Positions 12,601-30,446 are shown, counted from the first letter of the stretch. The stretch is 35,967 nucleotides of DNA from Deltaproteobacteria bacterium (GCA_016200595.1 JACQEL010000583.1:1-35967), one strand, 5' to 3'. Notes: generated by a model not told the origin, from the letters alone. Numbers and translations are program-made.

Positions 12601-12965
12601 GCGTCGCCGCTTCACCAGGACCACAGTCACGCACGGAACATCTCGTGCAGTTGTCTCGTCTAGCCGGCTCGGAACTGGAGCGGTATTGGCTTCGCTATTT
12701 GGAGGAGCACAGCTATCGTCTTCCATCGCATGCCCAGAAATTGATTGAGGCATGCAAGACACAGCCTGATTTTTTTTACGAGGAGAGTCAGGCGGCTATC
12801 TACGTCGATGGCCGGCCACATGATTATCCACAGCGGCAAGAACGCGACGCCACCCAAACGGAATGTTTGGAAGACCATGGCTATCTGGTGATCCGCTTTG
12901 GTCACCAGGATGACTGGATGGCTAAAATCGCGCAGTATCCACATATCTTTGGGAGAAAAGCATGA
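9669..12965 (+). CDS. C-terminal part of the same helicase: RecA2 lobe + DUF1998 (MrfA-type Zn cluster) + DUF559/Vsr-like PD-(D/E)xK nuclease-fold domain
   Basis: It is in the same frame as 7770..9650 (both coordinates are 0 mod 3). It reads LLSFTDNRQDAS, then motifs V/VI SPTMELGVDI...YAQRSGRAGRSGQPA. A Zn ribbon CLHCG...CERC and the DUF1998-like CEAACYDCLMEYYNQRDH follow. The C-terminus reads PDFFYEESQAAIYVDGRPHDYPQRQERD...GYLVIRF. The TTG start in the track has only a weak RBS. Confidence 0.85.
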   Translation: MSFTDNRQDASLQAGHFNDFIEIGLLRATLYRAVYDAGSVGLSHQNLAQKVFDALNLPLERYASNPTVRFQQLAETHRALREVLEYRLYRDLQRGWRITAPNLEQCGLLEIRYLSLDEVCQAEDVWQNSHPALVTASPQTRMQVARVLLDYMRRELAIKVDVLTSLYQERIQRQSSQYLIDPWALDENEVTRMERAAILFPRPSRPGDYGGHVYLSARGGFGQYLGRNATFPEWRDALRLGDRQTIILDLLKGLGIAGLVEIVQEAKGNDEVSGYQLPASALLWVAGDGTRAFHDPIRMPNVPETGGRTNSFFVEFYKTIAAETQGLEAREHTAQVPYELRLDRESRFRTGQLPVLYCSPTMELGVDIAELNVVNMRNIPPTPANYAQRSGRAGRSGQPALVFSYCATGSPHDQYFFKRPERMVAGAVTPPRLDLANEDLIHAHVQAIWLAETGLSLGQSLKDILDITGEEPSLALQEQVQADIAAERPRQRARARAERVLATIGNELQVADWYTERWLDEGLAQVGRNFEQACERWRGLYRAALSQAKAQDRIIRDASRSAQDKAQAERLRREAESQLKLLTEAEDLAQSDFYSYRYFASEGFLPGYSFPRLPLSAYIPGRRTKQRDEFLSRPRFLAISEFGPQAFIYHEGSRYVINKVILPVEADELLTRRAKQCLHCGYVHPITDGEGLDLCERCKAPLGAPLTSLLRLQNVSTRRRDKITSEEEERTRLGYEIITGFRFAETGGHLSCTSATIEREGTVLGHLTYGHTTTLWRINLGWRRRRQKDQYGFVLDKERGYWARNEQVIDEDDQNPDPLSARTARVIPYVEDRRNCLLFEPAESYSDTVMASLQAALKSAIQVVYQLEDNELAAEPLPGSGPQPRRLLLFYEAAEGGAGVLRRILDDPQAFAELAKEALRLCHFDPDTGEDRRRAPRASEDCEAACYDCLMEYYNQRDHPLLDRQAILNILLRWAGARVAASPGPQSRTEHLVQLSRLAGSELERYWLRYLEEHSYRLPSHAQKLIEACKTQPDFFYEESQAAIYVDGRPHDYPQRQERDATQTECLEDHGYLVIRFGHQDDWMAKIAQYPHIFGRKA

Positions 12966-15802
12966 GCTTTGCGGTAGGGTCGCTTGTCAAAGCACGAGGA
13001 AGGGAATGGGTCGTCTTGCCGGAATCGGAGGACAATTTGCTCGTACTCCGTCCTCTTGGCGGCACTGAGGATGAGGTCACGGGCATCTATCTTCCACTTG
13101 AACGAGTCGAGTCGGCGCGTTTTGACCTACCCGACCCCACACAGCTTGGAGACGACCGTTCCTGCCGCTTACTTCGTGATGCGGTGCGCCTCGGATTTCG
13201 CGCCAGCGCCGGCCCGTTTCGCTCGTTCGCCCGCATCGCTGTCGAACCGCGTCCTTATCAGTTGATACCTTTGTTAATGGCGCTGAAACTTGATCCCGTA
13301 CGCCTGTTGATTGCTGATGATGTCGGCATCGGCAAGACTATCGAGGCGTGTCTCGTCGCCCGTGAATTGATTGACCGTGGTGAAGTCGGACGTCTCGCAG
13401 TCCTGTGTCCACCACAGCTGGCGGAGCAGTGGCAAGCGGAACTACGCGACAAGTTCCACATTGACGCTGCGCTGGTGCTTCCCGGTACGGCCTCCCGGTT
13501 AGAGCGAGACTGCGGGCCGACGCAGTCGTTGTTTGATCTCTACCCCTACGTGATCGTTTCGACCGATTTCATCAAGTCAGACCGTCGGCGCGACGAATTT
13601 CTCCGCACCTGCCCCGAGCTAGTCATCGTTGATGAAGCCCACACCTGCGCCTCTGCCGCAGAAGGGTGGGGAGGTCGGCATCAGCGTCATCAATTAGTCT
13701 CTGGTCTGGCAGCCAACCAGAACCGCCATCTCATTCTGGTCACCGCGACCCCTCATAGCGGTAATGAGGAAGCGTTTCGTTCGTTGCTTACCTTATTGAA
13801 GCCAGAGTTTGCCCAGCTACCGCCAGATCTCATGGGCCGAGAGCACGAAGCTCAGCGCCGGCAGCTTGCTGCCCATTTCGTAGAGCGACGACGCGGAGAC
13901 ATTCGCCGCTATTTAGAGGCTGACACCCCTTTCCCCGAACGGGAAGAGAGCGAACAGACTTACAAACTTTCCGATGGCTACAAACGGCTCTTTGAGCGGG
14001 CGCTGAAATACGCGCGTGAGACTGTTGCCGATCCGGCTGGTCACACCCATCGCCAACGAGTCCGCTGGTGGTCGGCGCTGGCGCTGCTACGTTCTTTGGC
14101 CTCCAGTCCTGCGGCAGCCGCAGCCACCTTACGCAGCCGCGCCGCCGTGGCGGACACCGAAACCCCGACCGAAGCCGACCAGATTGGTCGCCGCGTTGTG
14201 CTCGATCTCATAGATGATGAATCGGCAGAGGGCGCGGACCTTCCTCCTGGCAGTGATCCCGGCGAGGAAAATGATGATGGGCATGGCAATCGACGCCGTC
14301 TCCTAGAGATGGCGCGAGAGGCTGACGCCTTACAAGGGGATAAGGATGAGAAGCTGAAAAAAGCAATCAAGCTGGTGGAGGTCTTGGTGAAAGATGGCTT
14401 CAATCCGATCCTCTTTTGTCGTTTTATTCCCACGGCTGAATACGTGGCCTTGGCGCTGCGGGAGAAGTTACCAAAGAACATAGATGTCGCAGCGGTCACT
14501 GGCACGCTGCCGCCTGCGGAACGGGAAGAGCGGGTGCTGCAACTCGCTCAGGCGCCTCGGCGTGTGCTCGTCTGCACCGATTGTTTGAGTGAAGGTATTA
14601 ACCTGCAAGAACACTTCGACGCAGTCATGCACTATGATTTGTCCTGGAATCCGACCCGCCACGAGCAGCGCGAAGGACGAGTGGATCGCTATGCGCAACC
14701 GAGTAAAACAGTGCGAGTGTTGACGTATTACGGCGTTGATAACCAGATTGATGGTATCGTGCTTGATGTGCTGCTGCGGAAGCATAAGACTATCCGCAGC
14801 TCGCTTGGCATTTCTGTCCCGGTTCCAATCGACCCTGACCAGGTCATCGAAGCGATCTTTGAGGGACTGCTCCTGCGAGAGAGTTCGGGTAAGGGACAAC
14901 AGTATCTCCCTGGATTTGAAGAAATCCTCAAACCGCAAAAGGAAGACCTCTTCCAGAAGTGGGATGCCGCGACAGAACGAGAGAAGCGGTCACGGACGAT
15001 GTTTGCCCAAGAGACCATCAAAGTCGATGAAGTCGCTCGCGAACTCACAGCAGTGCGGGCAGCGATTGGTTCAAGCGTGGACGTTGCCACGTTCACTAAA
15101 GAGGCCTTCCGTGTCCAGGGTGCGGTCGTCAGCGAGAATGGTGCTGTCCGCTTTGATCTCACCGAAGTGCCCCGTGCTCTGCGTGAAGCTGTTGGCAACT
15201 ACGAGCGCCTGACCGCCCGCTTTGAACTTCCTATTAAGGATGGACAACTATACCTGAGCCGCACCCACCCGATCATTGAGGGTTTGGCGAGTTACGTCAT
15301 GGATACAGCTCTTGATTCGCTGGGGCAGGGAGTTGCACGTCGTTGCGGCGTGATCCGCACCAGCCAGGTGGAGCGCCGTACCACCGTACTGCTCGTGCGC
15401 TGCCGGTACCATATCGTTACACAGCGCGGTGACACGGCAGGCATGATGCAGGATTCCCCTCCTCTCTTGGCGGAAGATTGCCTTGTCCTGGCTTTTGCTG
15501 GCGCTCCACAGAGTGCGCAGTGGCTGGATGAGAAGCGGGCGGAGGAACTGCTGCACGCTCATCCTGAGACGAATGTGTCGCCGGACCAAGCCACCCACTT
15601 CTTGGGGATTGTCATTGATGGCTTTGCGGCGATTCAGCCTCAGCTCGATCGGATCGCTGAACAGCATGGCCAGGAGATCTTGGCGGCACATCGCCGCGTG
15701 CGGCAAGCTAGCCGACTGCGGAACGTGCGGTACACAGTCGAACCCCACTTACCTCCCGATGTGCTTGGTGTGTACGTGTACCTCCCGGTTAGTGGACGGT
15801 GA
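12962..15802 (+). CDS. SNF2-family helicase (DrmD-like)
   Basis: PYQLIPLL..LLIADDVGIGKTIEA (motif I), VIVDEAHTC (DEAH), LVTATPHSGNEE, and LSEGINLQ...YDLSWNPTRHEQREGRVDRYAQ (motifs V/VI). An ATGA overlap links it to the upstream stop. Confidence 0.85.
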   Translation: MSFAVGSLVKARGREWVVLPESEDNLLVLRPLGGTEDEVTGIYLPLERVESARFDLPDPTQLGDDRSCRLLRDAVRLGFRASAGPFRSFARIAVEPRPYQLIPLLMALKLDPVRLLIADDVGIGKTIEACLVARELIDRGEVGRLAVLCPPQLAEQWQAELRDKFHIDAALVLPGTASRLERDCGPTQSLFDLYPYVIVSTDFIKSDRRRDEFLRTCPELVIVDEAHTCASAAEGWGGRHQRHQLVSGLAANQNRHLILVTATPHSGNEEAFRSLLTLLKPEFAQLPPDLMGREHEAQRRQLAAHFVERRRGDIRRYLEADTPFPEREESEQTYKLSDGYKRLFERALKYARETVADPAGHTHRQRVRWWSALALLRSLASSPAAAAATLRSRAAVADTETPTEADQIGRRVVLDLIDDESAEGADLPPGSDPGEENDDGHGNRRRLLEMAREADALQGDKDEKLKKAIKLVEVLVKDGFNPILFCRFIPTAEYVALALREKLPKNIDVAAVTGTLPPAEREERVLQLAQAPRRVLVCTDCLSEGINLQEHFDAVMHYDLSWNPTRHEQREGRVDRYAQPSKTVRVLTYYGVDNQIDGIVLDVLLRKHKTIRSSLGISVPVPIDPDQVIEAIFEGLLLRESSGKGQQYLPGFEEILKPQKEDLFQKWDAATEREKRSRTMFAQETIKVDEVARELTAVRAAIGSSVDVATFTKEAFRVQGAVVSENGAVRFDLTEVPRALREAVGNYERLTARFELPIKDGQLYLSRTHPIIEGLASYVMDTALDSLGQGVARRCGVIRTSQVERRTTVLLVRCRYHIVTQRGDTAGMMQDSPPLLAEDCLVLAFAGAPQSAQWLDEKRAEELLHAHPETNVSPDQATHFLGIVIDGFAAIQPQLDRIAEQHGQEILAAHRRVRQASRLRNVRYTVEPHLPPDVLGVYVYLPVSGR

Positions 15803-15876
15803 TCGGTGGTCGGTAAAGGTCAAGGGTTAGTCCTCCCATTGATCATCGACCACTGAACTAGCATACTTGCCTTCTC

Positions 15877-15902
15877 CCAACTATGATAGTTGCTATAGTT
15901 GG
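15877..15902. promoter_or_regulatory. Nested palindromes upstream of the antitoxin gene (candidate TA operator)
   Basis: In ccaactatgatagttgctatagttgg, caacta-tga-tagttg is a perfect inverted repeat, and ccaactat pairs with atagttgg. It abuts the GGAGG RBS at 15901-15905. Confidence 0.4.
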
Positions 15903-15911
15903 AGGTGTTGC

Positions 15912-16184
15912 ATGACAGAAAAGGTCTCCACTTTAGAAGTTCGCCAGAAGCTCGGCGACATCCTGAATCGTGTCGCCCTCCGTCATGACCAGTTCATCAT
16001 CGAACGTAAAGGCAAGCCTTTGGCGGCGATGGTACCGGTCGAACAGTTTGAACAGATGCAGCGCGCGGCCCGCCTCCATTTGCTGCGGGTGCTGGATGAT
16101 CAGCCGGGAACCCTGTCACAAGAAGAGGCTGACCAGCTTGCCGACGAGGCGAAACACCGCACACGAAAATCCAAGCGGAAGTAA
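15912..16184 (+). CDS. Phd/YefM-type antitoxin
   Basis: MTEKVSTLEVRQKLGDILNRVALRHDQFIIERKGKPLAAMVPVEQFEQM is a typical Phd/YefM N-terminus. The ATG at 15912 is preceded by GGAGG, and the track start at 15867 is probably too far upstream. Confidence 0.8.
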   Translation: MTEKVSTLEVRQKLGDILNRVALRHDQFIIERKGKPLAAMVPVEQFEQMQRAARLHLLRVLDDQPGTLSQEEADQLADEAKHRTRKSKRK

Positions 16185-16190
16185 CTTCTC

Positions 16191-16622
16191 GTGCTCCGCG
16201 CCGTTCTTGATGCCAACGTACTCGCCAGCGCGCTGATCCGGCCACAGGGACCACCCGGGCAAATCGTGACTCGTTTCCTTGAGGATCATGCATTCGTACT
16301 CGTCGTCTCGGCTCCTATCCTCGAAGAGCTGCGCCGTTGTCTTTCATACCCGCGTGTGCGGAAATACCTGACTGTCACTGATGAGGAACTCGATCTGTGG
16401 GTGACCGCCCTTGGCCTGATTGCCGATTCAGTGGCAGGCGCTGCCTTTCTATCCGCGGTTGTTGCCGACCCTGACGATAACAAATATCTTGTTGCCGCGC
16501 TGGAAGGCCGTGCGGATTTCGTGGTCAGCGGGGACAGACATCTGCTCGATCTTGGAGAATACGAAGGTGTACGTATCATAACTCCACGCGCTTTCCTCCC
16601 CATGCTTCAACAGGAGAACTAG
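16191..16622 (+). CDS. PIN-domain toxin (TIGR00305-like)
   Basis: VLDANVLASALI (first acidic residue), ILEEL, and DPDDNKYLVAALEGRADFVVSGDRHLL. It starts at a GTG 6 nt after the antitoxin stop. Confidence 0.85.
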   Translation: MLRAVLDANVLASALIRPQGPPGQIVTRFLEDHAFVLVVSAPILEELRRCLSYPRVRKYLTVTDEELDLWVTALGLIADSVAGAAFLSAVVADPDDNKYLVAALEGRADFVVSGDRHLLDLGEYEGVRIITPRAFLPMLQQEN

Positions 16623-19600: not shown

Positions 19601-20637
19601 CGACTATAGTTGGGGCAAGTGCATCTTCGGGCGGTTGGGGCGTCGACTATCTCCTCAAGCTCGTCGATCCGACTATTCACCGAGACCTCTTGGTAACAGA
19701 GGCTGAGGCCCTGCGGTTCCGAACTGGCGAAGCAACTGCCGAAAGTCTGGAAGGGCAAGCCTTGCCATTGTATGAGGGTAAGCAGATCCACCACTTCGAT
19801 CATCGCTACGCGACTTTCGACGGAGGCGAAGAGTGCAAGGTTAGTCTTCTAGATGACAAGCTTAAGGCGGGCTTTTCCGTGATGCCGAGGTACTGGCTGA
19901 GAGCGGCTGACTTCAAAGCGCGACTGCAGGGTCGCCCCATTCATTATCATGCATTCCTGTCGGTGAGAGACATTGCACGAGTGACGGACGAGCGCTCGTT
20001 CGTGACCGCCATTCGATCGTTTGTTCCAGCGCTGAACTCCCTGGGTAATCTCTTCTGCTGTTCTGCATCAGATGCGCTCTTTCTGTGTGGTTGCCTCAAC
20101 TCGTATGCAGCCGACTACGTTGCCAGGCAGAAGGTTGGAGGCACGCATCTGAGCCCTTTCTATCTGATGCAATTGGCGGTTGCCTCGCCCAGCAATGCAG
20201 GTCTCCGTACGCCTTGGTCAGAACCGAGCACCGCGAGACGGTGGGTGGAAGAGCGGGTTCTGGAACTTACCTACACCGCCTGGGACCTGGAGCTGTTCGC
20301 GCAGGACTGCGGTTGGAGCGGCCCACCCTTCTGCTGGGACGAGGAGCGGCGCTTCCTGCTACGCTGTGAGTTGGACGCAGCATTCTTTCATCTCTACCGC
20401 ATCACCCGCGAAGATGTAGACTATATCATGGAGACTTTCCCCATCGTTAAGCGTAAGGACGAGAAAAAATACGGCGAGTATCGCACTAAGCGTGTTATCC
20501 TGGAAATCTACGACGCTATGGCCGAAGCCATCGGCACCGGCAAACCCTACCAGACTCTGCTTGACCCACCGCCTGCTGACCCCCGCATGGCCCACCCGCT
20601 GCGACAGAATTCTGCCGCGCAGAGCATAAGACTCTGA
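16624..20637 (+). CDS. Large gamma-class N6-adenine DNA methyltransferase (DrmMI / PglX / Eco57I-like)
   Basis: SAM motif I VCDPACGSGHFLIAA, and motif IV VLGNPPWERVK (NPPW at 18940-18951), in a 1337-aa protein. The ATG lies 1 nt after the PIN stop, and the RBS AGGAG sits inside the PIN gene. Confidence 0.85.
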   Translation: MQLRQRVSFTTLHAEGAILPADLLQRIAAGDRNLTGLTPEDYHLDKGERLNEATNRAWNRLVGTWATFREARAKLSPGDLGTTITRERWLLPLCSELGYGRLLTAKAIEVEGKSYPISHGWQHAPIHLVGCRVELDTRTAGVAGASRSSPHGLVQELLNRSDKHLWGFVSNGLRLRILRDNSSLTRQAYVEFDLEAMMEGEVYADFVLLWLLCHESRVEAERPAECWLERWSRTAQEQGTRALDQLRVGVEEAITALGRGFLVHPANQGLRDKLRSGTLEKHEYYRQLLRLVYRLLFLFVAEDRDLLLNPQADVAARDRYQRFYSTAKLRRLAERRVGTRHADLYHGLRLIIQKLGSDTGCPELALPALGSFLFSTEAVPDLEGCEISNHALLDAIRALAFSTDSHSRRLVDYKNLGSEELGSVYESLLELHPILNVDAGAFELKTAGGHERKTTGSYYTPTSLIQCLLDSALDPVLEEAARQENPEAAILKLKVCDPACGSGHFLIAAAHRIAKHLATIRTGDDEPSPDAIRTALRDVIGHCIYGVDVNPMAVELCKVSLWMEALEPGKPLSFLDHRIQCGNSLLGATPALLKKGIPDEAFDPIEGDDKEVCRKFKKLNREERKGQGSLFDASLQPWERLGDLAAGLLSLEEISDDTIAGVRHKQERYEGLVRSSGYLYGRLWADAWCAAFVWKKTKEFPYPITEEVFHRIEQNPFSIASWMREEIQQLAKQYQFFHWHLVFPDVFWVPTGSEEPENAQAGWSGGFDVVLGNPPWERVKLQEKEFFVERSPEIASASNAAVRKRLITQLVADNPSLMAEFQTAQREAEGESHFMRNSGTYPLCGRGDINLYTIFAEAASKRLAPPGRMGLVLPSGIATDDTTKFYFQDVIDTRSLVSLFDFENKGIFPGVHSSYKFCLFTAGSGRAAPAGRKDGDAAEFAFFAHSVDDLQDPKRRYTLSAEDIARLNPDTRTCPIFRSSLDAGLTKTIYAHTTIVGASASSGGWGVDYLLKLVDPTIHRDLLVTEAEALRFRTGEATAESLEGQALPLYEGKQIHHFDHRYATFDGGEECKVSLLDDKLKAGFSVMPRYWLRAADFKARLQGRPIHYHAFLSVRDIARVTDERSFVTAIRSFVPALNSLGNLFCCSASDALFLCGCLNSYAADYVARQKVGGTHLSPFYLMQLAVASPSNAGLRTPWSEPSTARRWVEERVLELTYTAWDLELFAQDCGWSGPPFCWDEERRFLLRCELDAAFFHLYRITREDVDYIMETFPIVKRKDEKKYGEYRTKRVILEIYDAMAEAIGTGKPYQTLLDPPPADPRMAHPLRQNSAAQSIRL

Positions 20638-20653
20638 AGGAGAGTTGAGAGAA

Positions 20654-22297
20654 ATGGAGGACGGACAGTTGGAGCAACTTATCTGGTACACCGTTCCTGG
20701 GGCACTGGTAGTGGCAGCCATGCTCCTTGTTTGGCCTCACGTCCTCCAGCCGGATGGAATGACAGCACTCATTATTGCAGGGACCCCACTCCTGGGGTTT
20801 GTAATACATCAGGCATACCGGCTATTTTTCGAGTGGCGAGGTGGATTCACCCAGGAGTCACGCAGATCATTAGACATCCTTTGGCAGGCAATAGCGAGAC
20901 CTTGCGGATTTGAGAACTCCGATCATCGTTACACAAAAAGTTTCTTAATTTGGGAAATCACATTCTACGGAGAAGAGATCCCTGAAGGCTTTCGCGGTCA
21001 TGACAGAGGCGCATGGCACTACATCCTTTCGTTCCGGGCTAGTTCTTGGAGTAGCTTCTTCGCAGCGTTCATTCTCGTGTGGGCAATTTTATGGCGCACC
21101 TATACCAATACTCAACAAGGGAGCCTCTTTTATCTTATCATTGCTGCTTTGGTTGCTGTTGCTGTAGGATTTATTTTCTGTTTCAAAGGGAAGCAGACGC
21201 ACGAGAGCCTGATGAATCAAGAGATTGCTGTGATTTACCGCTATGCTGAAAAGTTTTCTGAAACCGCGAGAAAATTGCGCATTTTGGACAAAGGAGACAT
21301 CGTGGCAAGATACGTAGCTTGGGTCGATATTCTTGGCTTTGCTTCGCTAATGACAGCTGATGGCGACCGCGCCAAGCGTACCTGGACAGAACTACGTGAA
21401 TTAGTAAAGAAGCACCTTCCCGCAAAGGGAGGAGCTCAGGTGTACGGTATCAATGACGGCTTCTTCGCCATCAGCGAGGATCCCGCACTGCTCCAAGGGC
21501 TCGTAAGTATTTATCAGTCCTGGTTCGATAAATTTGCAGAGGTACCGGGTAGCCGGCCGTTACTTCGGGGGGCCATTTCGACAGCCTCTGCTGAGATTAC
21601 ACCCGAGCAAGAGGACTCTAATGTTTGTCTGTGGCTTGAGGGGCCTGGCTTTAGATATGCCTCTGAGTATGAGCAACTACTTCGGGGTTCCCGCTTGTTT
21701 ATTGACCCTACCGCTATTAAAGTTGCCGAAAGTGAGGCTAACCTATTCTGCTATGAGTGGGAGGAGATCTCTGGCTGGGAGCTCCCCGAAAATAGTAGGG
21801 GCATGCATCTAGGAGAGGTCCTTTGGCCTATTTCGGAAGACTCGGCAGAACTCCTAGTTCGTGCAGAAAAGTCGTTTAAGCTTTATGATGGAGCCTTTGC
21901 CGACTTTCTTCGCAAAGAAGCTGATGTTGGCCTAAAGGACGCACTTCCAAAGCTTCTTCAGTATGAGGAAACGCTCAAGCTGATGTTGCGCAGCATCGGT
22001 AAGAAATTACATGCCGATGCTGGCAAGAAGGAAGAGTTGGAGCAGTTCGTTTCAAGGATGCTAAAATATCGCCCAGACCAGTTTCGGTTGACATGGGGAG
22101 TTACGTTTGTTGCCCTTGAAGCAGTGTTCCTTGCAGGGTGCCTAGATGCTCACCATTATGCGCGGTGCGTCAAAGAATACCTCGGAAAACAGTCGAATAA
22201 CCTTGAAAATGTTCGGTTTGTAAAGGATTTTGAGGAGGAGCTAAAGCTCTCGACATATAAGCGCTTTTCAGAGTGGTGGCATTCCAACAGCAGATGA
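20654..22297 (+). CDS. Unassigned membrane protein: about 4 TM helices + divergent class III cyclase-like domain + helical C-terminal domain
   Basis: TM candidates are LIWYTVPGALVVAAMLLVW, MTALIIAGTPLLGFVIHQAY, SSFFAAFILVWAILW and LFYLIIAALVAVAVGFIFCF. Then come VAWVDILGFASLM...GAQVYGINDGFFAIS...LLRGAISTASAE...EGPGFRYASEYEQ. The ATG at 20654 has AAGGAG at 20637-20642, and the track's TTG at 20645 is too close to that RBS. Confidence 0.7.
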   Translation: MEDGQLEQLIWYTVPGALVVAAMLLVWPHVLQPDGMTALIIAGTPLLGFVIHQAYRLFFEWRGGFTQESRRSLDILWQAIARPCGFENSDHRYTKSFLIWEITFYGEEIPEGFRGHDRGAWHYILSFRASSWSSFFAAFILVWAILWRTYTNTQQGSLFYLIIAALVAVAVGFIFCFKGKQTHESLMNQEIAVIYRYAEKFSETARKLRILDKGDIVARYVAWVDILGFASLMTADGDRAKRTWTELRELVKKHLPAKGGAQVYGINDGFFAISEDPALLQGLVSIYQSWFDKFAEVPGSRPLLRGAISTASAEITPEQEDSNVCLWLEGPGFRYASEYEQLLRGSRLFIDPTAIKVAESEANLFCYEWEEISGWELPENSRGMHLGEVLWPISEDSAELLVRAEKSFKLYDGAFADFLRKEADVGLKDALPKLLQYEETLKLMLRSIGKKLHADAGKKEELEQFVSRMLKYRPDQFRLTWGVTFVALEAVFLAGCLDAHHYARCVKEYLGKQSNNLENVRFVKDFEEELKLSTYKRFSEWWHSNSR

Positions 22298-22420
22298 CGG
22301 CCACATAACAAGCGCTTGGAACTGATGCCGATGGAGTCGGTTCGGCAAAGCCGAGAGTTGCTGGCGGTGCAGTTCAAGCGCAATTAGCCGCTGGCATCTA
22401 TTGCCAAGCAAGGTTGCAAG

Positions 22421-23416
22421 ATGAAACCAAGCGATATTGAATCGTGGACCCTCGATATCATAGCTCGCGTTCGGGCTGGCCAGCCGATCGAAGACACCCG
22501 CGTCGAACTGAAAGCTGAGTGGCCGGAGGCATCAAAGGCCGCTCGTAGACTGGCTGGTCATGCCAATGCAGCTCGTGGTGAGCCCATTCTCTGGCTTATC
22601 GGTGTTGACGAGAAAAAAGGTGTTGTGGGTGCAGCACGGAGGGATCTCGCATCGTGGCTTCCACAAGTTTGTGCCGAGTTCGATCAGTTACCTCCCCCAC
22701 TTATTGACGTAAATGTTCCAACTGGAGACACTACCGTCGTTGCTCTGTATGTAGAAACAGAACGAGCTCCCTTCGTCGTACGTAATCCTGTTTTTGGACA
22801 GCAAGGGGGAGGTTCTGTTGAGAGAGAAGTGCCGTGGCGAGATGGAACTAAGATCCGCAGCGTCCGCCGAGAGGACCTTCTCCGTCTGCTTGGGCCGTTA
22901 AGACGAATGCCTAAGGTCGAAGTCCTTGGAGGCAGTGTCGAGGCCCGGGGTAGTAAATACAACCCTGTTGAGGGAGGTTACTCAAAGGTAGCTGGAGAAC
23001 AGAGCCAGTGGCAGATCAAGATCCCTCTCTATATCGTGCCGATGGATACTCAAGTTCTCACAATCCCCTTCCACCGCTGTATCGCAGAGGTGAGTATAGC
23101 AGGCATCCTTGAAGAGGCGAATTTCACGGTGCGTCGCCTTCGACCTATTAAGTGGAATCCTACTATCGCAGTCCCGGCTTCCGTTAACATCGTGACGTCT
23201 GAGTCAGAAACTGTGATACGCGGGCCAGGAAAGGTCGAACTGGAGGCATACTTTAAAGAGGAACATCTATCATCGACGTCGCACGGTTCAGGACGTCTGA
23301 AAGTCTGTTTAGCCTTGGCGGAAGTGGACAGGTCCGTCGTGATTGTCGGTAATCTCTTGCCGGTGAAGGAGTACGTCTTTGAGATGGCGAACATCAATGT
23401 CTCGTACTCAGTGTAG
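22421..23416 (+). CDS. Unassigned protein: N-terminal AlbA_2/Schlafen-like putative nucleic-acid-binding domain + beta-rich C-terminal domain
   Basis: EDTRVELKAEWP...LAGHANAARGEPILWLIGVDEKKGVVGA...VVALYVETERAPFVVRN...VPWRDGTKIRSVRREDLLRLL follows the AlbA_2 (PF04326) motif order as I remember it. No profile search was run. Confidence 0.55.
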   Translation: MKPSDIESWTLDIIARVRAGQPIEDTRVELKAEWPEASKAARRLAGHANAARGEPILWLIGVDEKKGVVGAARRDLASWLPQVCAEFDQLPPPLIDVNVPTGDTTVVALYVETERAPFVVRNPVFGQQGGGSVEREVPWRDGTKIRSVRREDLLRLLGPLRRMPKVEVLGGSVEARGSKYNPVEGGYSKVAGEQSQWQIKIPLYIVPMDTQVLTIPFHRCIAEVSIAGILEEANFTVRRLRPIKWNPTIAVPASVNIVTSESETVIRGPGKVELEAYFKEEHLSSTSHGSGRLKVCLALAEVDRSVVIVGNLLPVKEYVFEMANINVSYSV

Positions 23417-23573
23417 ACCGGCGGTCAGTCCTGTCGCATACACAACCTGTAACGGCAGTGTACCGAATCCCCTGTGGTTTGATTCAGTAGCGTGCATCTT
23501 TTCAGACCGTCTGCTTCTGAGGTGACGATGCGTCCTCTTTTTTCTCTCCCCTCTGCCGAACTACAATAGCGGT

Positions 23574-24200
23574 ATGGAAGACGACGAGACTCTTGAGGAA
23601 TGGCTCCACACAAGCAGTGTGGCATCTTTATTCCCACTACTGCGGCGAGGCCTCTATCATGTAACAAGCATAGAGGGCTACCGGGGGATTCGCCGTGATG
23701 GCTTTATTCGGCCTTGGGATGGAAGCTTTCGAGCTGCTTTCCCTAAGAGCAACAGTCACGCACGGCATCACGGTTGGGTTCCTCTGTTTGATTTCCAAAC
23801 GCCTACCGAGGAACAATACTTTCAAGTGAGACATCAATGGGGCATGTTCTTCGTAAAAGACGAGCCTGTCACTATTCTGATCCATCTTTCTCGGGAAAAG
23901 CTAGCGCCAAAGCTTATCCCCAATGAGGCTGTAGAAACAGAAGCAGATTACCGTCAGAGGCTGAGGATACCGTATGTAGAGGTGTGGTATCCAGAGCCGA
24001 TACCGTTGTCGGCCATCCAAAGCTTCATTCTCGTGTTTCCATCGAAGCCGGTGAGGTACCTCATATTTAGGGCGAATGAGGAGGGGCTCGCGGAACTTGA
24101 CAGAATACTTGGTGAAATAGAGGCTCTTATCGCCGCTGGCCTCATCAAAGTCCTCTCCACCCGCGACCGCTTCATAGCACGGCTTCGCCAGTCCTATTGA
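23574..24200 (+). CDS. Unassigned 208-aa protein, possibly ADP-ribosyltransferase-fold (DarT/DUF4433-like)
   Basis: [20 protein letters not shown] resembles the H-x-T motif, and [24 protein letters not shown] resembles the DarT C-terminal AEFLV...P...I..I.V motif. The similarity is weak and judged by eye. Confidence 0.5.
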
Positions 24201-24211
24201 AGGGTTGCTGG

Positions 24212-24397
24212 TGGGTAGATAAGGAGCATGTTCGACCCTTCGCCAGAGACTACGGCTACGATGGACCGTCGTCCCGCTGGGATAAGGAGCGGCGTTTCTT
24301 GCTGTGCTGTGAACTCGATGCTGCCTACTTCCACCTCTACGGCATCGCCCGCGACGACGTGGACTACATCATGGAAACCTCCCCTATCATGAAATAG
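24212..24397 (+). pseudogene. Relic of a second methyltransferase gene, 3'-end fragment part 1
   Basis: It translates to [52 protein letters not shown]. The intact methylase C-terminus reads [52 protein letters not shown]. Confidence 0.8.
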
Positions 24398-24424
24398 GTA
24401 GCTGAGAAAGAAGTAAAAGAACGC

Positions 24425-25090
24425 ATGGGAGATAGTCTATTACAAATTGAGGGCTTACGAGTAAAAAATGACGGCGACAGGACTGTCCGGCAATTTGCTC
24501 TTGATATCGACAGCTTGGAAGTCCGACCTAACGATTGCATCCTCATTCTTGCTGATCGATGTCATGGTAAGTCGGCACTGAGAGCTTCATTGAAAGCGAT
24601 ATTCTGTCAACCGCTGACCGAGGGGAATAACCTGGATATCCCACAGTGCGAAGAATCTAAACCTATAGTGCATGTAGACTCTCTATTCCGAAGAGAAGAT
24701 GCCTGTTTTCATGAGCAGGGTGGAGATCCTAAAGGACTTCAGGCAGTAGAGGACCGCTCAACGATTATCTACTGTGATGACCCGCTTTTTCCGCATACCC
24801 AGAATTCATCCAGCCGCGAGATTCTCGACACTGTTCGTAAAAGATCGCTGACTATGATGATGGCTAGTGATCCTGACAGGCTCCAAGGAACATTGGAGTA
24901 TCTTCTTACTCATCAAACGAGTCGCATTCTGTGGCTGTGTAACGGCAGGGTATTCTGGAACGGATTGGCAGGAGAGTTTCATACCTCCGTCGATGCACTG
25001 TGCGGTCGCTACCGGTCAGAAGCCGAACAAGGACGAAGCACTGAGAATTTTCTGAGAACAATCCACGCTGCGACTCAGAGATTCAATTAA
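24425..25090 (+). CDS. Degenerate ABC-ATPase-like protein (221 aa)
   Basis: The layout is ABC-like: LLQIEGLRV, Walker A degraded to ILADRCHGKSAL, Walker B IIYCDDPLF (no catalytic Glu), H-loop position MMMASDPD, and ILWLCNGRV. Confidence 0.5.
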   Translation: MGDSLLQIEGLRVKNDGDRTVRQFALDIDSLEVRPNDCILILADRCHGKSALRASLKAIFCQPLTEGNNLDIPQCEESKPIVHVDSLFRREDACFHEQGGDPKGLQAVEDRSTIIYCDDPLFPHTQNSSSREILDTVRKRSLTMMMASDPDRLQGTLEYLLTHQTSRILWLCNGRVFWNGLAGEFHTSVDALCGRYRSEAEQGRSTENFLRTIHAATQRFN

Positions 25091-25185
25091 GCATCCCCAG
25101 TTGTCGACATGCTAACTTCATCGCTCACACCTCGCTAAAAGCTACGGCAGGATACTGTCAAATTTTGAAAAGAAGGACTCTTCAT

Positions 25186-25401
25186 ATGGCCAACCAGAAA
25201 GTATCTCGGGAGGCAATCTTGGAAGAGTGGCGGAAGTCGCAACCAAAATCGGCTCCTGCGACATATCAAGAAAAGATGAACTTCTATTTATGGCTGGAGA
25301 AGGAACGACCTCACCTTCTCAAGTTTCGGATATCAGCAACTCAACAGGGCGACAAATGGCAAACGGTGCATGCTTGGCTAAACGAACATGACCTGCACTA
25401 A
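25186..25401 (+). CDS. Small hypothetical protein (71 aa from the ATG; the track starts at TTG 25165)
   Basis: The ORF reads MANQKVSREAILEEWRKSQPK...FYLWLEKERPHLLKF...DKWQTVHAWL. GAAGGA lies about 9 nt upstream of ATG 25186. I recognise no domain. Confidence 0.4.
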   Translation: MANQKVSREAILEEWRKSQPKSAPATYQEKMNFYLWLEKERPHLLKFRISATQQGDKWQTVHAWLNEHDLH

Positions 25402-25447
25402 TGGAAAGCTGCTCTATTGCCAAATACAGAGACAATGGGCAACACGG

Positions 25448-25594
25448 CAGTACCGAACCAAGTGCGTTATCCCAGAAATCTAGGATGCCATGGCCGAAGC
25501 CATCCGCACTGGTAAGCCCTACCAGACTCTGCTTGACCCACCGCCTGCCGACCCCCGCGTCGCGCATCCGGCAAGGGAGCGAGGGAGTCAGTGA
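25448..25594 (+). pseudogene. Relic of a second methyltransferase gene, 3'-end fragment part 2 (contains an internal TAG)
   Basis: The frame reads QYRTKCVIPEI*DAMAEAIRTGKPYQTLLDPPPADPRVAHPAR. The intact methylase reads EYRTKRVILEIYDAMAEAIGTGKPYQTLLDPPPADPRMAHPLR. The TAG at 25481-25483 replaces the Tyr codon. Confidence 0.8.
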
Positions 25595-26854: not shown

Positions 26855-28039
26855 TTACTTTTTCTCAGCCTCAGCATCCGCGCCTTGCTGTTTCCGCAGC
26901 GCGCCGCTGACGATTTTGTATTCCAAGAGCCGGCATTCGAGGGAGCCGTTGAAGAGGGGGGTGCGACGGCTGGCCGCCAGACCGATCAACTTGGGCAGAC
27001 GCAGATCTGCCGTGAACAGGTACGCGCGCCAGCCAGCGAAGTTTCGCTTCAGGCTGTCACCGAGACGCGGGTAGAACGCGGCCAACTGCTCCTTATCACC
27101 GAGGCGGACCCCGTAGGGTGGGTTCGTCACCAGTATCCCCTCCCCAGCCGGCGGCTTGAGATCCAGCAGGTCGGCCTGCTTGAGTGCCACCGTATCGACC
27201 AAGCCGGCGGCCTTGAGATTGGTCCGCGCCGCCTGGATCGCGGCCCCCTGGATGTCGCTCCCATAAATGGCACAATGCGCCTTCGGCAGTTGCTGCGCCC
27301 GGCCGGCCTCGCACAGCGCCTGCCACTGACGAGCGGCAAAGTTGTTCAGCTTCTCGAACGCAAAGCGCCGCCCCAGCCCCGGCGGAATGTTCCGCGCGAT
27401 CAACGCCGCTTCCAACACGAAGGTGCCGCTCCCGCACATCGGGTCGAGCAACGGTTGCTGCGCAGTCCAGCCCACCAGCCGCAGAATGCCCGCCGCGAGA
27501 TTCTCCCGCACCGGCGCCTCGCTGACGGCGGTGCGCAGCCCGCGCTTGAAGAGGGCCTCACCCGAGGTATCGAGGTAGAGCGTCACGGTTTGACGGTCCA
27601 GAAACGCGTCAATGCGGATATCTGGTCGGCGTGTGGCCACGTCGGGACGACCGCCGGCGACCACGCGGAAGCGATCGCAGATCGCGTCCTTGATCCGCAG
27701 GGTGACAAAATCCAGGCTGCGCAGCGGGCACTGCTGGGCACTGACCTTCACCTTGATCGTGCGGCGGACGGGAAACCACGTCGGCCAGGGCAGCACATGC
27801 GCGGCCTGAAAAATATCGCGCTCGTCGCGGTAGGTGCCGTGAAAGACGCGCCACAGCACCCGGCTGGCGATCCGGCTGTAGAGGTTGACGGCGTAGCAGA
27901 GGGCAAACGGGCCGGTGAAGGACACCCCACCAGGGAGGGCGTGCACGTCCTGCGCACCCAACTGCTCCAGCTCGGTACCCAGCACCGCCTCCAGCCCACG
28001 AGGGCACGGGGCAAAGAAGGTCTCGTTTTGCTTACTCAT
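26855..28039 (-). CDS. THUMP-domain class I SAM-dependent RNA methyltransferase (RlmL N-terminal-half / COG0116 type)
   Basis: FFAPCPRGLEAVLGTELEQLGA, SAM motif DPMCGSGTFVLEAAL and motif IV ILVTNPPYGVRLG. I prefer the start MSKQNETFF at 28039 over the track start at 28117. Confidence 0.8.
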   Translation of the reverse strand: MSKQNETFFAPCPRGLEAVLGTELEQLGAQDVHALPGGVSFTGPFALCYAVNLYSRIASRVLWRVFHGTYRDERDIFQAAHVLPWPTWFPVRRTIKVKVSAQQCPLRSLDFVTLRIKDAICDRFRVVAGGRPDVATRRPDIRIDAFLDRQTVTLYLDTSGEALFKRGLRTAVSEAPVRENLAAGILRLVGWTAQQPLLDPMCGSGTFVLEAALIARNIPPGLGRRFAFEKLNNFAARQWQALCEAGRAQQLPKAHCAIYGSDIQGAAIQAARTNLKAAGLVDTVALKQADLLDLKPPAGEGILVTNPPYGVRLGDKEQLAAFYPRLGDSLKRNFAGWRAYLFTADLRLPKLIGLAASRRTPLFNGSLECRLLEYKIVSGALRKQQGADAEAEKK

Positions 28040-28383
28040 AGCGGTAGGCATTGGCAGAGAGGAAAGACGAAAACGGAGACCGTAACAAAATGGGGGCTGG
28101 AAGATACGCGGCTGCAAAACAGGGTGCGATGCCCAACTATGTAACTTCCTGCCCCATCATTTCGACCCACAAAGAAAAACAGCAACTTCGAGCTCGCATT
28201 GGAAAACTACCTCAGGCTATCGCGCCCCTTTCTTGTAGCGGATTTTGCTAACAAACAGAAGCAATTCGGTCGGTTCTTGATGGCCGCCCCGCTATTCGCC
28301 CTCGTGTGAGAGAACGCCACGCTGTCCAGGGTGATTGCTGCCCTTTTGCCCTCCTGGCTGAGGTACTTTCTCAACCGGAGGAC

Positions 28384-30183
28384 TCACCGCTGTTTCTCCT
28401 CAAGTTCGGCCCAGCGCGCGTAGAGCGTCTCCACCGCCATACGAGCGGCCTCCCACGCTGCGTAGCAATCCTGCACCGCAACTGGATCCGAGGCTACGGT
28501 GGGATCATCCAACGCGCGCCGGCTCGCCGCGAGGACCTCTTCTGCTGCCAGGATCTTCTGTTCCATCTGTTCCCATTCGCGCTGCTCCAGAGAGGAGCGG
28601 CGCGTCCCGCGCTGGGTATCTCGGCGAGGCGGCTTCGGCGTGGAGGAGCGGGCCTCTGGCGTCTCCCTCTTTTGCGCAGCCTCCCACTGCGCGTAATCGG
28701 CGAAGAACACGCCCGGGCCGGTCCCATCGAGTGCGAGAATCAGGGTAGAAACGCGTTCCAGCAGCAAGCGGTCATGGGTGACAAGCACCAAGGTGCCCGG
28801 AAAGTCCACCAGGCTTTCCTCCAGTACCTCCAACGTTGGGATGTCGAGGTCATTCGTCGGCTCGTCCAGCAGTAAGAGATCTGCGGGTTGGAGCATAAGG
28901 CGCGCGATCAGGAGACGCGCCTGCTCACCTCCGGACAGCTGATGGACCGGCGTCTCTAGCTGATCGGCGCGGAAGAGGACCCGCTTGGCCCATGTGGCGA
29001 CATGGATAGATTGGCCTCGATAGCTCAGCATATCACCTTGGGGAACCAAGGTACGTTTCACACTGAGGTCAGGGTCGAGCGCGGCGCGGTTCTGCTCGAA
29101 GTAGACAACCCGGAGATCCTTTGCCTGTTCCAACTCGCCGCTGTCAGGTGCCGTTATGCCAGCGAGCAGGCGCAGCAAGGTGGTCTTGCCGCTGCCGTTG
29201 GGTCCCAGGAGACCAAGCCGCATCCCAGCAGTCAGCGTGAGGTCTATGCCTTTCAGGATTGGTTTGGGACCGAAGGCTTTCGTGAGATGTCGTGCGACTA
29301 GTAGCTTTTTCGACTGCCGGTCTGAGCTGGTAAACTCGATCCCCGCCGTCTGCTGCACAGTCCTTGTCTTAAGGTCCTCTAGGTCCTGTTTGAGTCGCCC
29401 CGCCTCTTTCACGCGGGCGTGGGCCTTGGTGGTGCGGGCCTTGGCTCCCTGCCGCAGCCATGCCATCTCGCGGCGGACCGTGTTCGCCAGGGACGCTTGA
29501 TAGACCGTCTGAGCCCGGAGGGCTTCCTCCCGCTTCTCGAGAAAATCGCTGTAGCGGCCTTCGGTCTCGAAGAGACCTCCAGGATAGGCGCGGTTGAGTT
29601 CCAGCATCCGCGTCGCCACGTGCTCCAGGAAGTACCGGTCGTGGCTGACAACAAGAGAGGCCAGGGGCTCGACCTGCAGGAGCTGTTCGAGCCACAGAAT
29701 ACCTTCGACATCCAAATGGTTGGTCGGCTCATCGAGCAAAAGGACCGTAGGAGCCTTCACCAACTCGCGGGCAATGGCCAGCCGCTTCTTCCATCCGCCC
29801 GACAGTGCAGCTACGGGCTGGTGGAAGTCGGTGAACCCAGCACGCCCCAAGGAGACCGCAATTCTCGTCGTTTTTTCGAACTCTTCCTGCTTATCCGTGA
29901 CAAGTGCTTCTTGCAGCACTTCCTCCACTGTGTGAGCTGGGGGAAACTCTGGCTCCTGCGGCACATACCCTACGCTTACAAGGCGTCGCACAGAGCGCGT
30001 GCCACTGTCCGGCGCTTCGACCCCAGCCAGGACCTTGAGGAGAGTTGATTTCCCGGAACCATTCGGACCAACGAGGCCGACACGGTCGCCTTCACACAGG
30101 CCGAAGGAGAGTCTGGTGAACAGCGGTTGGGCGTTGTACGCTTTGCTGATCGCCTCGCAGCTGAGGAGGAGGGCCCGACTCAT
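28384..30183 (-). CDS. ABC-F family ATPase (Uup-like, two ABC cassettes + C-terminal coiled coil)
   Basis: GLVGPNGSGKSTLL / LSGGWKKRLAIA / LLLDEPTNHLD, and GLLGPNGSGKTTLL / LSGGEQARLLIA / LLLDEPTNDLD. The true start MSRALLLSCEAISKAY is at 30183. The track's 80-aa N-terminal extension overlaps the GIY-YIG gene in another frame. Confidence 0.85.
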   Translation of the reverse strand: MSRALLLSCEAISKAYNAQPLFTRLSFGLCEGDRVGLVGPNGSGKSTLLKVLAGVEAPDSGTRSVRRLVSVGYVPQEPEFPPAHTVEEVLQEALVTDKQEEFEKTTRIAVSLGRAGFTDFHQPVAALSGGWKKRLAIARELVKAPTVLLLDEPTNHLDVEGILWLEQLLQVEPLASLVVSHDRYFLEHVATRMLELNRAYPGGLFETEGRYSDFLEKREEALRAQTVYQASLANTVRREMAWLRQGAKARTTKAHARVKEAGRLKQDLEDLKTRTVQQTAGIEFTSSDRQSKKLLVARHLTKAFGPKPILKGIDLTLTAGMRLGLLGPNGSGKTTLLRLLAGITAPDSGELEQAKDLRVVYFEQNRAALDPDLSVKRTLVPQGDMLSYRGQSIHVATWAKRVLFRADQLETPVHQLSGGEQARLLIARLMLQPADLLLLDEPTNDLDIPTLEVLEESLVDFPGTLVLVTHDRLLLERVSTLILALDGTGPGVFFADYAQWEAAQKRETPEARSSTPKPPRRDTQRGTRRSSLEQREWEQMEQKILAAEEVLAASRRALDDPTVASDPVAVQDCYAAWEAARMAVETLYARWAELEEKQR

Positions 30184-30446
30184 GGCGTTACGGGTCCTAG
30201 GTCCTGCGCAGTTTTCACGAACGCCTCCTTCTGGGTCCGGGTCAGTCTTTTGATGCGGTGCTCCTCTTTCAAGGCCTCGCTCCAGGAGTACACCTGGCGT
30301 GTCCACCAGAGGGTCACCGGCAGATGCGCCCGCGTGTATTTCGAGGCCTGACCAGCCTGATGCTGCTTCAGGCGCTTTGACATATTCGTTGTAATCCCAG
30401 TATAGAGCGAGCCATCGCCGCATCGGAGGATATAGACAAAGGCCAT
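30180..30446 (-). CDS. GIY-YIG nuclease family protein (UPF0213/YhbQ-like)
   Basis: MAFVYILRCGDGSLYTGITTNMSKRLKQHQAG...YTR. The stop TGA overlaps the ABC-F ATG as ATGA. Confidence 0.85.
   Translation of the reverse strand: MAFVYILRCGDGSLYTGITTNMSKRLKQHQAGQASKYTRAHLPVTLWWTRQVYSWSEALKEEHRIKRLTRTQKEAFVKTAQDLGPVTP

Follow-up and report, generated by a model that had tools for sequence, protein, structure and literature searches.

Directly behind the methylase gene of a DISARM-like defence operon lie three genes, here called P1, P2 and P3, which are probably three unrelated, separately acquired single-gene modules, and the segment that holds them (positions 20,638 to 24,200) is best read as a slot that lies at the methylase gene's 3′ end and was filled with cargo stepwise; a probability of roughly 0.7 can be put on this reading. 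The stretch of DNA in which they lie, hereafter the window, comprises 35,967 nucleotides (nt) of a metagenome-assembled genome held at the NCBI and labelled Deltaproteobacteria bacterium (GCA_016200595.1, JACQEL010000583.1:1-35967; locus tags HY268_20270 to HY268_20285). The original prediction for this segment had joined the three genes into one system of sensor, signal and effector, with independent single-gene systems as its fallback, and had itself named genes that never co-occur as what would speak against a single system.

Relatives of P1 or P3 were present in none of 80 loci of P2 relatives, examined with flanks of up to 10 kb; the loci of P1 relatives that were checked held neither P2 nor P3, and those of P3 relatives were likewise without the partners. 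The closest relative of P3, at a locus called L004, stands directly after a methylase gene, without P1 or P2. The three families, moreover, differ in size by orders of magnitude, with about 37 representatives for P1, at least 1457 relatives for P2 and six for P3. Thus, the absence of co-occurrence, the unequal family sizes and the layout of L004 argue that this is not one three-gene system, and the fallback of independent single-gene systems is favoured instead.

Of the two things that were to be looked for around the relatives, co-occurrence was not found, whereas defence or toxin–antitoxin genes do recur near relatives of all three. Among the 134 immediate neighbours of P2 relatives, the only family that recurs is a set of six syntenic DnaJ-type genes; these neighbours include a few defence genes (LmuB, type IIG restriction-modification (R-M), DRT, GajB-like) and many housekeeping genes; in two further contexts, AbiEii and Mrr adjoin the P2 relative. 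The relatives of the P1 soluble domain stand alone in various surroundings: beside HigBA-like genes, in an island with TIR, IS200 and type III R-M genes, or beside a gene for a helicase with a phospholipase D (PLD) domain, while others lie near LeuS or between MnmE and UvrA. P3 relatives are found after a methylase gene (L004), after two small genes (L006 and L007), after a HEPN gene (L005, where AlbA_2 and SIR2 genes are also near), or on short contigs.

The arrangement of the segment itself was as predicted: three genes on the same strand, directly after the methylase gene, with intergenic gaps of 123 and 157 nt (Table 1). All three open reading frames (ORFs) are intact and each has homologues elsewhere, so that they can be regarded as real genes. 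P1 could start at ATG 20654 or, possibly, at TTG 20645; the Shine-Dalgarno sequence AGGAG (20638-20642) immediately follows the methylase stop codon (20635-20637) and precedes the ATG by 11 nt. Given this placement, the most likely start of P1 lies 16 nt beyond that stop, as had been proposed, which gives a protein of 547 amino acids (aa). Promoter-like and terminator-like sites occur in the window in the numbers expected from shuffled sequence, with no terminator signal above chance. From the position of the Shine-Dalgarno sequence and the lack of a terminator signal, the transcript of the methylase operon probably continues through P1, P2 and P3 as its last genes. The segment is also AT-richer than its surroundings, as had been remarked: the GC content is 0.51 overall (0.49 in P1, 0.53 in P2 and 0.51 in P3), against 0.56 in the DISARM-like operon and 0.59-0.61 in the housekeeping flanks. 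Further downstream, it is 0.47 in an insertion that carries a fourth ORF (P4), and 0.57 and 0.62 in the two relic pieces on either side of it.

These relic pieces are a copy of the end of the methylase gene. Its last ~140 codons are duplicated downstream of P3, decayed and in two pieces, the first of which begins right after the P3 stop codon; over both pieces the nucleotide identity to the intact methylase end is 72-84%, and both contain in-frame stops, i.e., they are pseudogenised. As the two pieces are complementary, they represent a single relic split by an insertion of ~1.05 kb (24394-25440). The decayed methylase end that had been reported after P3 is, therefore, present, but more complex than reported, since the P4 insertion has split it in two. 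P4 matches no family in Pfam, PADLOC, NCBIfam or PHROGs; its N-terminus resembles a degenerate start of an ABC-type ATPase (ILILADRCHGKSAL), a resemblance matched by no library. A reading of the relic as a shufflon or phase-variation device was ruled out: the repeats are direct, 72-84% identical and interrupted by stop codons.

Locus L004 supplies the comparison from which the assembly of the slot can be approached. Its order is an SNF2 gene, a 23S_rRNA_IVP gene, a gene for a methylase of 1416 aa, P3, which is 75% identical and follows that methylase gene at a distance of 27 nt, and then a relic of the window-type methylase end that no insertion interrupts; P1, P2 and P4 are absent. Homology between L004 and the window runs from the ATG of P3 to the end of the relic, at ~80% for DNA and 75-81% for protein, whereas SNF2 and the N-terminal half of the methylase share only 38-42% protein identity and the C-terminal halves of the methylases are unrelated. 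At L006 and L007, P3 followed by a short relic lies behind other genes. P3 and the relic would thus form an old block of ~1 kb that was moved between diverged operons. In the proposed history, P3 would have entered into or behind a methylase gene of the window's type in an old event that left the last ~140 codons as a dead copy after P3; the block of P3 and relic would then have travelled between diverged operons; P1 and P2 would have arrived between the methylase stop and P3, in one event or two, possibly together with the 3′ part of the methylase gene; and the ~1-kb piece with P4 would later have split the relic. Neither a recombinase nor a repeat-bounded element was detected, and the P1–P2 and P2–P3 spacers held no further relic fragments above chance; the mechanism favoured on these grounds is recombination swapping the 3′ parts of methylase genes, which may have dragged neighbouring genes along. 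Campbell-type integration of a circle with cargo and a methylase 3′ fragment was also considered: it fits the window, but not L004, whose methylase C-terminal half is unrelated.

P2 belongs to a large family of proteins of ~320-350 aa, from many bacterial phyla and some archaea, mostly uncultured soil and water bacteria and cyanobacteria. The earlier assignment to the AlbA_2/Schlafen-like proteins is borne out at the level of the family: PF04326 is the only recurrent Pfam match (weak, in 24 of 44 members at E<=0.1, best 3e-5), and the motif E-x4-E-x-K, which in P2 reads E24-DTRV-E29-L-K31, is present in all 44 aligned members, its columns invariant. This motif corresponds to the catalytic motif E-x4-(E/D)-x-K of prokaryotic Schlafen (pSlfn) defence nucleases, which were collected by the criterion of a PF04326 domain of >100 aa at E<0.001, and a role in defence has been demonstrated by experiment for proteins of P2's layout (PMC13056530; Perez Taboada et al., Nat Microbiol 2026). 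One of them, pSlfn5, has an N-terminal Slfn RNase and an Ig-like sensor and cuts tRNA once the sensor has recognised a tail-assembly chaperone of the phage, and its sensor domains likewise evolve fast relative to the nuclease half (PMC13056530). Mean identity of the family to P2 is 61% in the N-terminal domain and 25% in the C-terminal half. By motif and layout, P2 is a putative divergent member of this recently established kind of protein. It would act as a Schlafen-type RNase, the variable C-terminal half sensing a phage protein and the E-x4-E-x-K site cutting tRNA, thereby halting translation. At one locus (L099, 9433-11397), an Mrr_cat restriction gene adjoins a P2 relative and is followed by an unannotated gene of 324 aa, about the size of the P2 family. 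Scans of viral contigs gave one P2 relative and no relatives of P1 or P3.

P3 has six relatives of 189-208 aa. The NCBI annotation (HY268_20280) covers only its last 118 codons; the frame of 208 aa is supported by the lengths of the six homologues and by an invariant N-terminal His motif. Invariant in the family are H29 (GLYHxTS), LFDF at 71-74 and E136 (VEVWYPxP), the last of which would presumably place P3 in the H-Y-E branch of ADP-ribosyltransferases (ARTs). The suspected likeness to ARTs was supported by an AlphaFold2 model with a predicted local distance difference test (pLDDT) score of 73.8: approximately 45 of the 50 top Foldseek matches in the PDB are ART or ART-like, with DarT (7omw) first (E=2.7e-3, probability 0.99) and with CC0527, TreX, pierisin and the cholera, heat-labile (LT) and pertussis toxins among the others. 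DarT is an ADP-ribosyltransferase of single-stranded DNA and belongs to DarTG, a toxin–antitoxin and defence system. In BFVD, uncharacterised jumbo-phage proteins come first (best E=1e-4), and the only annotated matches are a putative RNA 2′-phosphotransferase (Tpt1) and a phage DarT. Profile searches were silent: Pfam at E<=10 on seven family members gave no ART-type family, DarT included, but only chance matches to DUF6758 (0.058) and RNaseH_C (0.2); PADLOC and PHROG gave no match; and a profile search of the PDB gave nothing at E<=10 but one chance match. Thus, that P3 has an ART fold is predicted with medium confidence, and it may act as an NAD+-dependent ADP-ribosyltransferase of the DarT/Tpt1-like branch, modifying nucleic acid or protein. 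No macrodomain (DarG) or NADAR antitoxin lies beside it, and P2 and P4 have no macro or NADAR match.

At L005 (9154-10570) and on a second, independent contig from ERR11592907, a more distant relative of P3 (46% identity) lies 80 nt after a gene for a HEPN-domain protein of 255 aa, and these relatives may form a HEPN/ART pair. HEPN as the partner of P3 in general was rejected, as it occurs only in relatives of the L005 type and is absent here and at L094-L096; likewise, a SIR2-like identity was suspected for the gene upstream of P3 at L006, for which Pfam gave no match.

P1 is the most unusual of the three: a member of a rare, probably cyclase-derived family, here uniquely with a predicted membrane anchor. 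Both halves of the earlier description, four transmembrane helices and a cyclase-like domain, were recovered. A hydropathy scan predicts the four helices, and a K/R-rich loop of 74 aa between helices 2 and 3 suggests, by the positive-inside rule, that both termini are inside. A word-seeded search of 5.8 billion proteins gave two relatives other than P1 itself, both of them soluble (324 and 350 aa) and aligned to aa ~214-547 of P1. An exhaustive HMMER search of 1.84 billion representatives, with the alignment of these relatives as query, gave 37 at E<=1e-3. Nearly all of these are 320-360 aa long, and in nearly all the match begins no more than ~40 residues into the protein; the members of a subgroup (~250-276 aa) have only the N-terminal half in common. 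No homologue of the membrane module was found among the 5.8 billion proteins, and it is absent from every relative whose sequence or locus was read; it appears to be an orphan module, fused to the family's soluble part at this locus only.

The soluble part of P1 comprises a palm-like domain, with the conserved motifs YVAWvDiLG, xxDGf, LLRGaI and G..l..AY..E....G.RlF and the invariant residues D225 (WVDILGF), D268 (INDGF) and R305 (LLRGAIS), and a helical domain with the invariant stretches QYEETLKLxLRS and TWGxTFVALEA. A hidden Markov model (HMM) of the N-terminal half, built from 34 sequences, was run on all 2874 six-frame ORFs of >=120 aa that the window and 87 fetched loci contain, and its best match outside the family (E=1.4e-4; next E=2) was the class III cyclase at the left end of the window, 2-1927(-). 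That protein carries Guanylate_cyc (PF00211, E=2.8e-10) at aa 7-157, and the alignment to the P1 HMM spans aa 9-154, with D225 and D268 of P1 opposite its two conserved Asp residues, presumably the metal-binding pair by analogy with class III cyclases. Homology of the palm domain to class III cyclases is moderately well supported by this alignment. In class III cyclases, the Asn and Arg of the VN-A-R motif are a pair that stabilises the transition state. P1 has GFRYASEYE where the cyclase has GINVAARLQ, and the positions of Asn and Arg vary across the P1 family; with this pair lost, P1 may not be a canonical cyclase, and its chemistry is probably altered. P1 would be anchored in the membrane, and its palm domain, as a descendant of the class III cyclases in which both metal-binding Asp residues are retained, probably still binds or transfers nucleotides.

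Direct searches assigned no family: neither PF00211 nor the PycC models of PADLOC detect P1, Pfam assigns none, PF00211 included, to 35 remote relatives, and a PDB profile search with the P1 family gave nothing at E<=10. Mining by regular expression for class III cyclases gave no protein with a strict pattern and two with a relaxed one, i.e., the window's own and one at L069. In an AlphaFold2 model of the soluble part of P1 (pLDDT 71.6) the palm half is poor and the C-terminal helical bundle good, mostly at 77-93 with one block of 10 residues at 63; five of the top 50 Foldseek matches, all weak, are class III cyclases, and for the helical domain Foldseek finds nothing significant or informative. 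In one branch of the family, a conserved protein of 316 aa, 88% identical between two contigs and without a Pfam match, is encoded 30-36 nt upstream of the P1-type gene (L089, 1830-3865; L003, 1-1826), and the two may form a two-gene unit. L089 also holds a TIR_2 gene, an IS200 transposase gene and a type III R-M system interrupted by HigBA.

Table 1. Features of the window, with positions counted from its first nucleotide
Feature	Position	Strand	Basis or remark
Class III cyclase (PF00211) with TPR repeats	2-1927	-	Cut by the left edge of the window
DEAD helicase gene	7770-9650		DISARM-like operon
Helicase_C + MZB/DUF1998 + DUF559 protein	9669-12965	+	DISARM-like operon
SNF2 protein	12962-15802		DISARM-like operon
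Phd/YefM antitoxin	15867-16184	+	Between SNF2 gene and methylase gene
PIN_3 toxin	16191-16622	+	Between SNF2 gene and methylase gene
Intact DrmMI/type IIG-like N6-adenine methyltransferase, 1337 aa	16624-20637	+	PADLOC DrmMI 1.4e-73; Pfam Eco57I, N6_Mtase, MmeI_Mtase
P1, 547 aa, MBI3799287.1	20654-22297	+	ORF and Shine-Dalgarno sequence
P1 membrane module, four predicted transmembrane helices (aa 9-31, 36-54, 129-147, 158-176)	20678-21181	+	Kyte-Doolittle scan
P1 divergent class III cyclase-like (palm) domain	21308-21778	+	Family HMM, alignment, weak Foldseek matches
P1 C-terminal all-helical domain	21842-22294	+	AlphaFold2 model, invariant columns
P2, 331 aa	22421-23416	+	ORF and homologues
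P2 N-terminal Schlafen/AlbA_2-like nuclease domain, aa 1-165, E24-x4-E29-x-K31	22421-22915	+	PF04326, motif
P2 C-terminal half, aa 166-331, putative sensor domain	22916-23416	+	Low conservation; β-rich by eye
P3, 208 aa, HY268_20280	23574-24200	+	ORF and homologues
Relic piece A (methylase aa ~1200/1225-1277)	24201/24239-24393	+	tblastn, blastn, repeat finder
Insertion splitting the relic, ~1.05 kb	24394-25440	+	Relic pieces complementary; relic uninterrupted in L004
P4, orphan ORF, 221 aa, MBI3799290.1	24425-25090	+	Inside the insertion
Relic piece B (methylase aa 1285-1331)	25441-25590	+	84% nt identity to 20468-20598; in-frame stop
dCTP deaminase gene	Downstream of the segment		Pfam
RlmL/THUMP gene	26855-28117	-	Pfam
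ABC-F ATPase gene	28384-30423	-	Pfam

The operon upstream is DISARM-like, and not canonical. DISARM is recognised by a DrmA helicase, DrmB (DUF1998), DrmD (SNF2), the DrmMI methylase and DrmC (PLD). PADLOC and Pfam recognise in it a DEAD helicase gene, a gene with Helicase_C, MZB/DUF1998 and DUF559 domains, an SNF2 gene and the DrmMI-like methylase gene, and a PLD (DrmC) gene is absent from it; the SNF2 protein scores 312.9 bits on the NCBIfam model DrmD, against a cutoff of 610, and its best PADLOC model is DpdE, while that of the helicases is DruE. The DUF559 domain (Vsr-like endonuclease) is C-terminal in its protein. The slot between the SNF2 and methylase genes holds a Phd/PIN pair in the window and the gene of a 23S_rRNA_IVP four-helix bundle in L004; with different cargo at this place in the two loci, the operon has more than one cargo position. 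No tRNA genes or Rfam families were found in the window. An ORF of 419 aa (26885-28144, plus strand) antisense to the gene of the RlmL/THUMP methyltransferase matches no family; given the high GC content of this DNA, it is probably spurious, a mere shadow of that gene.

That the three genes make up one immune system, with P1 as membrane sensor and source of a nucleotide signal, P2 as nucleic-acid binder and P3 as NAD-using effector, has some attraction: the genes share a strand close behind a defence methylase, in AT-rich DNA, their domains resemble a set of sensor, signal and effector, and no named system claims them, Pfam, PADLOC and NCBIfam assigning none of the three, as had been expected, and PHROGs likewise giving nothing significant. 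The loci and family sizes set out above make this very improbable, as do the loss of the Asn/Arg pair in the P1 family and the absence from P2 and P3, in Pfam and PADLOC scans, of a domain that would sense a cyclic nucleotide. Alternatively, the three could be accessory modules, co-transcribed with the DISARM-like machinery and dependent on it, P3 or P1 serving, e.g., as a second-line effector or regulator. The junction of methylase and P1 described above accords with this, as does the other cargo of these operons, and the nearest relatives of P3 always come with this type of methylase or its relic; yet relatives of P1 and P2 are found in places remote from any such methylase, the more distant P3 relatives lack both methylase and relic, and the methylases that precede P3 in L004 and in the window have C-terminal halves unrelated to each other, which argues against a specific protein partnership. 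Such dependence is therefore unlikely. More improbable is that immunity is not involved and that the slot collects selfish or neutral cargo (toxin-like orphans, regulators or decaying passengers) at a recombination-prone gene end. No relative was found in PADLOC, housekeeping genes (DnaJ, ribonucleotide reductase, LeuS, UvrA, MnmE) neighbour many P2 and some P1 relatives, and the adjacent relic and P4 show that junk accumulates in the region. Against this stand the intact ORFs, catalytic-type residues conserved across the families, the demonstrated defence function of Schlafen-type proteins of P2's layout and the recurrence of defence and toxin–antitoxin genes near relatives of all three (for P1, TIR, type III R-M, HigBA and helicase-PLD).

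The reading preferred here, a slot filled stepwise with unrelated single-gene modules, has its own difficulties. Most P1 and P3 relatives lie on short contigs, so that the test of co-occurrence has low power for both; some P1 and P2 relatives are found among housekeeping genes; and the order of events is drawn from three contexts only. For P2 itself, the match to PF04326 (E=0.046) reaches only 14.7 bits where the cutoff is 25.3, and covers only aa 24-88. Structures of Schlafen proteins have been deposited in the PDB, and a PDB profile search with the P2 family found no chain at E<=10; nor did hhalign, at low power, match the family to the one AlbA_2 protein encoded at L005. Confidence in the P3 model is medium, with Foldseek E-values of 1e-4 to 1e-2 and template-modelling (TM) scores of 0.36-0.6, and the absence of a neighbouring antitoxin is odd for a DarT-like toxin. 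In P1, parts of the palm domain have pLDDT <50 with no significant Foldseek match, the link to cyclases is one match of an HMM to a sequence, and the candidate cyclase of L069 (a regular-expression match without Pfam verification) scored nothing with that HMM.

A tempting lead, a three-gene signalling system, is thus replaced by three candidates that can each be tested separately. P2 stands for a putative Schlafen-type family of at least 1457 members just under the detection limit of Pfam, and would extend the known range of Schlafen-like immunity among environmental bacteria; P3, which is rare, has a predicted ART fold and no antitoxin. What marks the place of accretion is a copy, now decaying, of the host gene's 3′ end, and P3 with the relic is shared by operons that are otherwise ~40% identical, which makes the locus a case for the growth of defence islands without dedicated recombinases. 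Perhaps, although this is a long shot, P1 represents a new kind of immune protein that is anchored in the membrane and sufficient by itself: a degenerate palm domain of the class III cyclase type, together with the conserved helical domain, would sense infection, and P1 would act via its own four-helix module without a separate effector, its soluble relatives forming an undescribed single-gene defence family; or the 3′ end of the methylase gene is a docking site that, independently of recombinases, moves cargo such as P3 with its relic between diverged DISARM-like operons.

Among known systems, the class III cyclases, including PycC, are the counterpart of P1: the palm domain aligns over the full length of PF00211, with both Asp residues, the R-x-G strand and the G..A...E...G motif in the same order and spacing, and the membrane module is reminiscent of the transmembrane effectors of Pycsar. 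Unlike them, P1 is fused to a conserved helical domain of unmatched fold and its Asn/Arg pair is not conserved; and unlike the two-gene layout of Pycsar, the four-helix membrane module is part of P1 itself, there is no separate effector gene, and the soluble relatives share no effector partner. P3 can be compared with DarT of DarTG, its best structural match, in size (~200 aa), in an N-terminal His motif of the ‘YH-T’ type, in a conserved Glu late in the fold and in its defence-island context; it differs from DarT in having no sequence match to the DarT Pfam family and no adjacent macrodomain or NADAR antitoxin, and in a partner that varies by locus (none here, HEPN at L005).

P2 is closest to pSlfn5, as represented by RorSlfn5 (PMC13056530): each is encoded by a single gene and of similar size (331 aa against 43 kDa), with an N-terminal AlbA_2/Schlafen-like domain, the E-x4-(E/D)-x-K motif near the N-terminus, a conserved nuclease half and a fast-evolving C-terminal half, and the gene is solitary and often beside defence genes. 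P2 differs from the pSlfn proteins in falling below the PF04326 threshold, and was probably missed by the search in that study; the Ig-like sensor fold is that of pSlfn5, and the C-terminal half of P2 is a putative sensor domain. The slot as a whole is analogous to the defence genes embedded in, or appended to, BREX, DISARM and type I R-M loci, in that small, unrelated genes of defence type (the Phd/PIN pair; P1 to P4) sit at the junctions of a large methylase/helicase operon; unlike in those, what marks the site here is the decayed second copy of the methylase gene's end, which travels with P3 between diverged operons.

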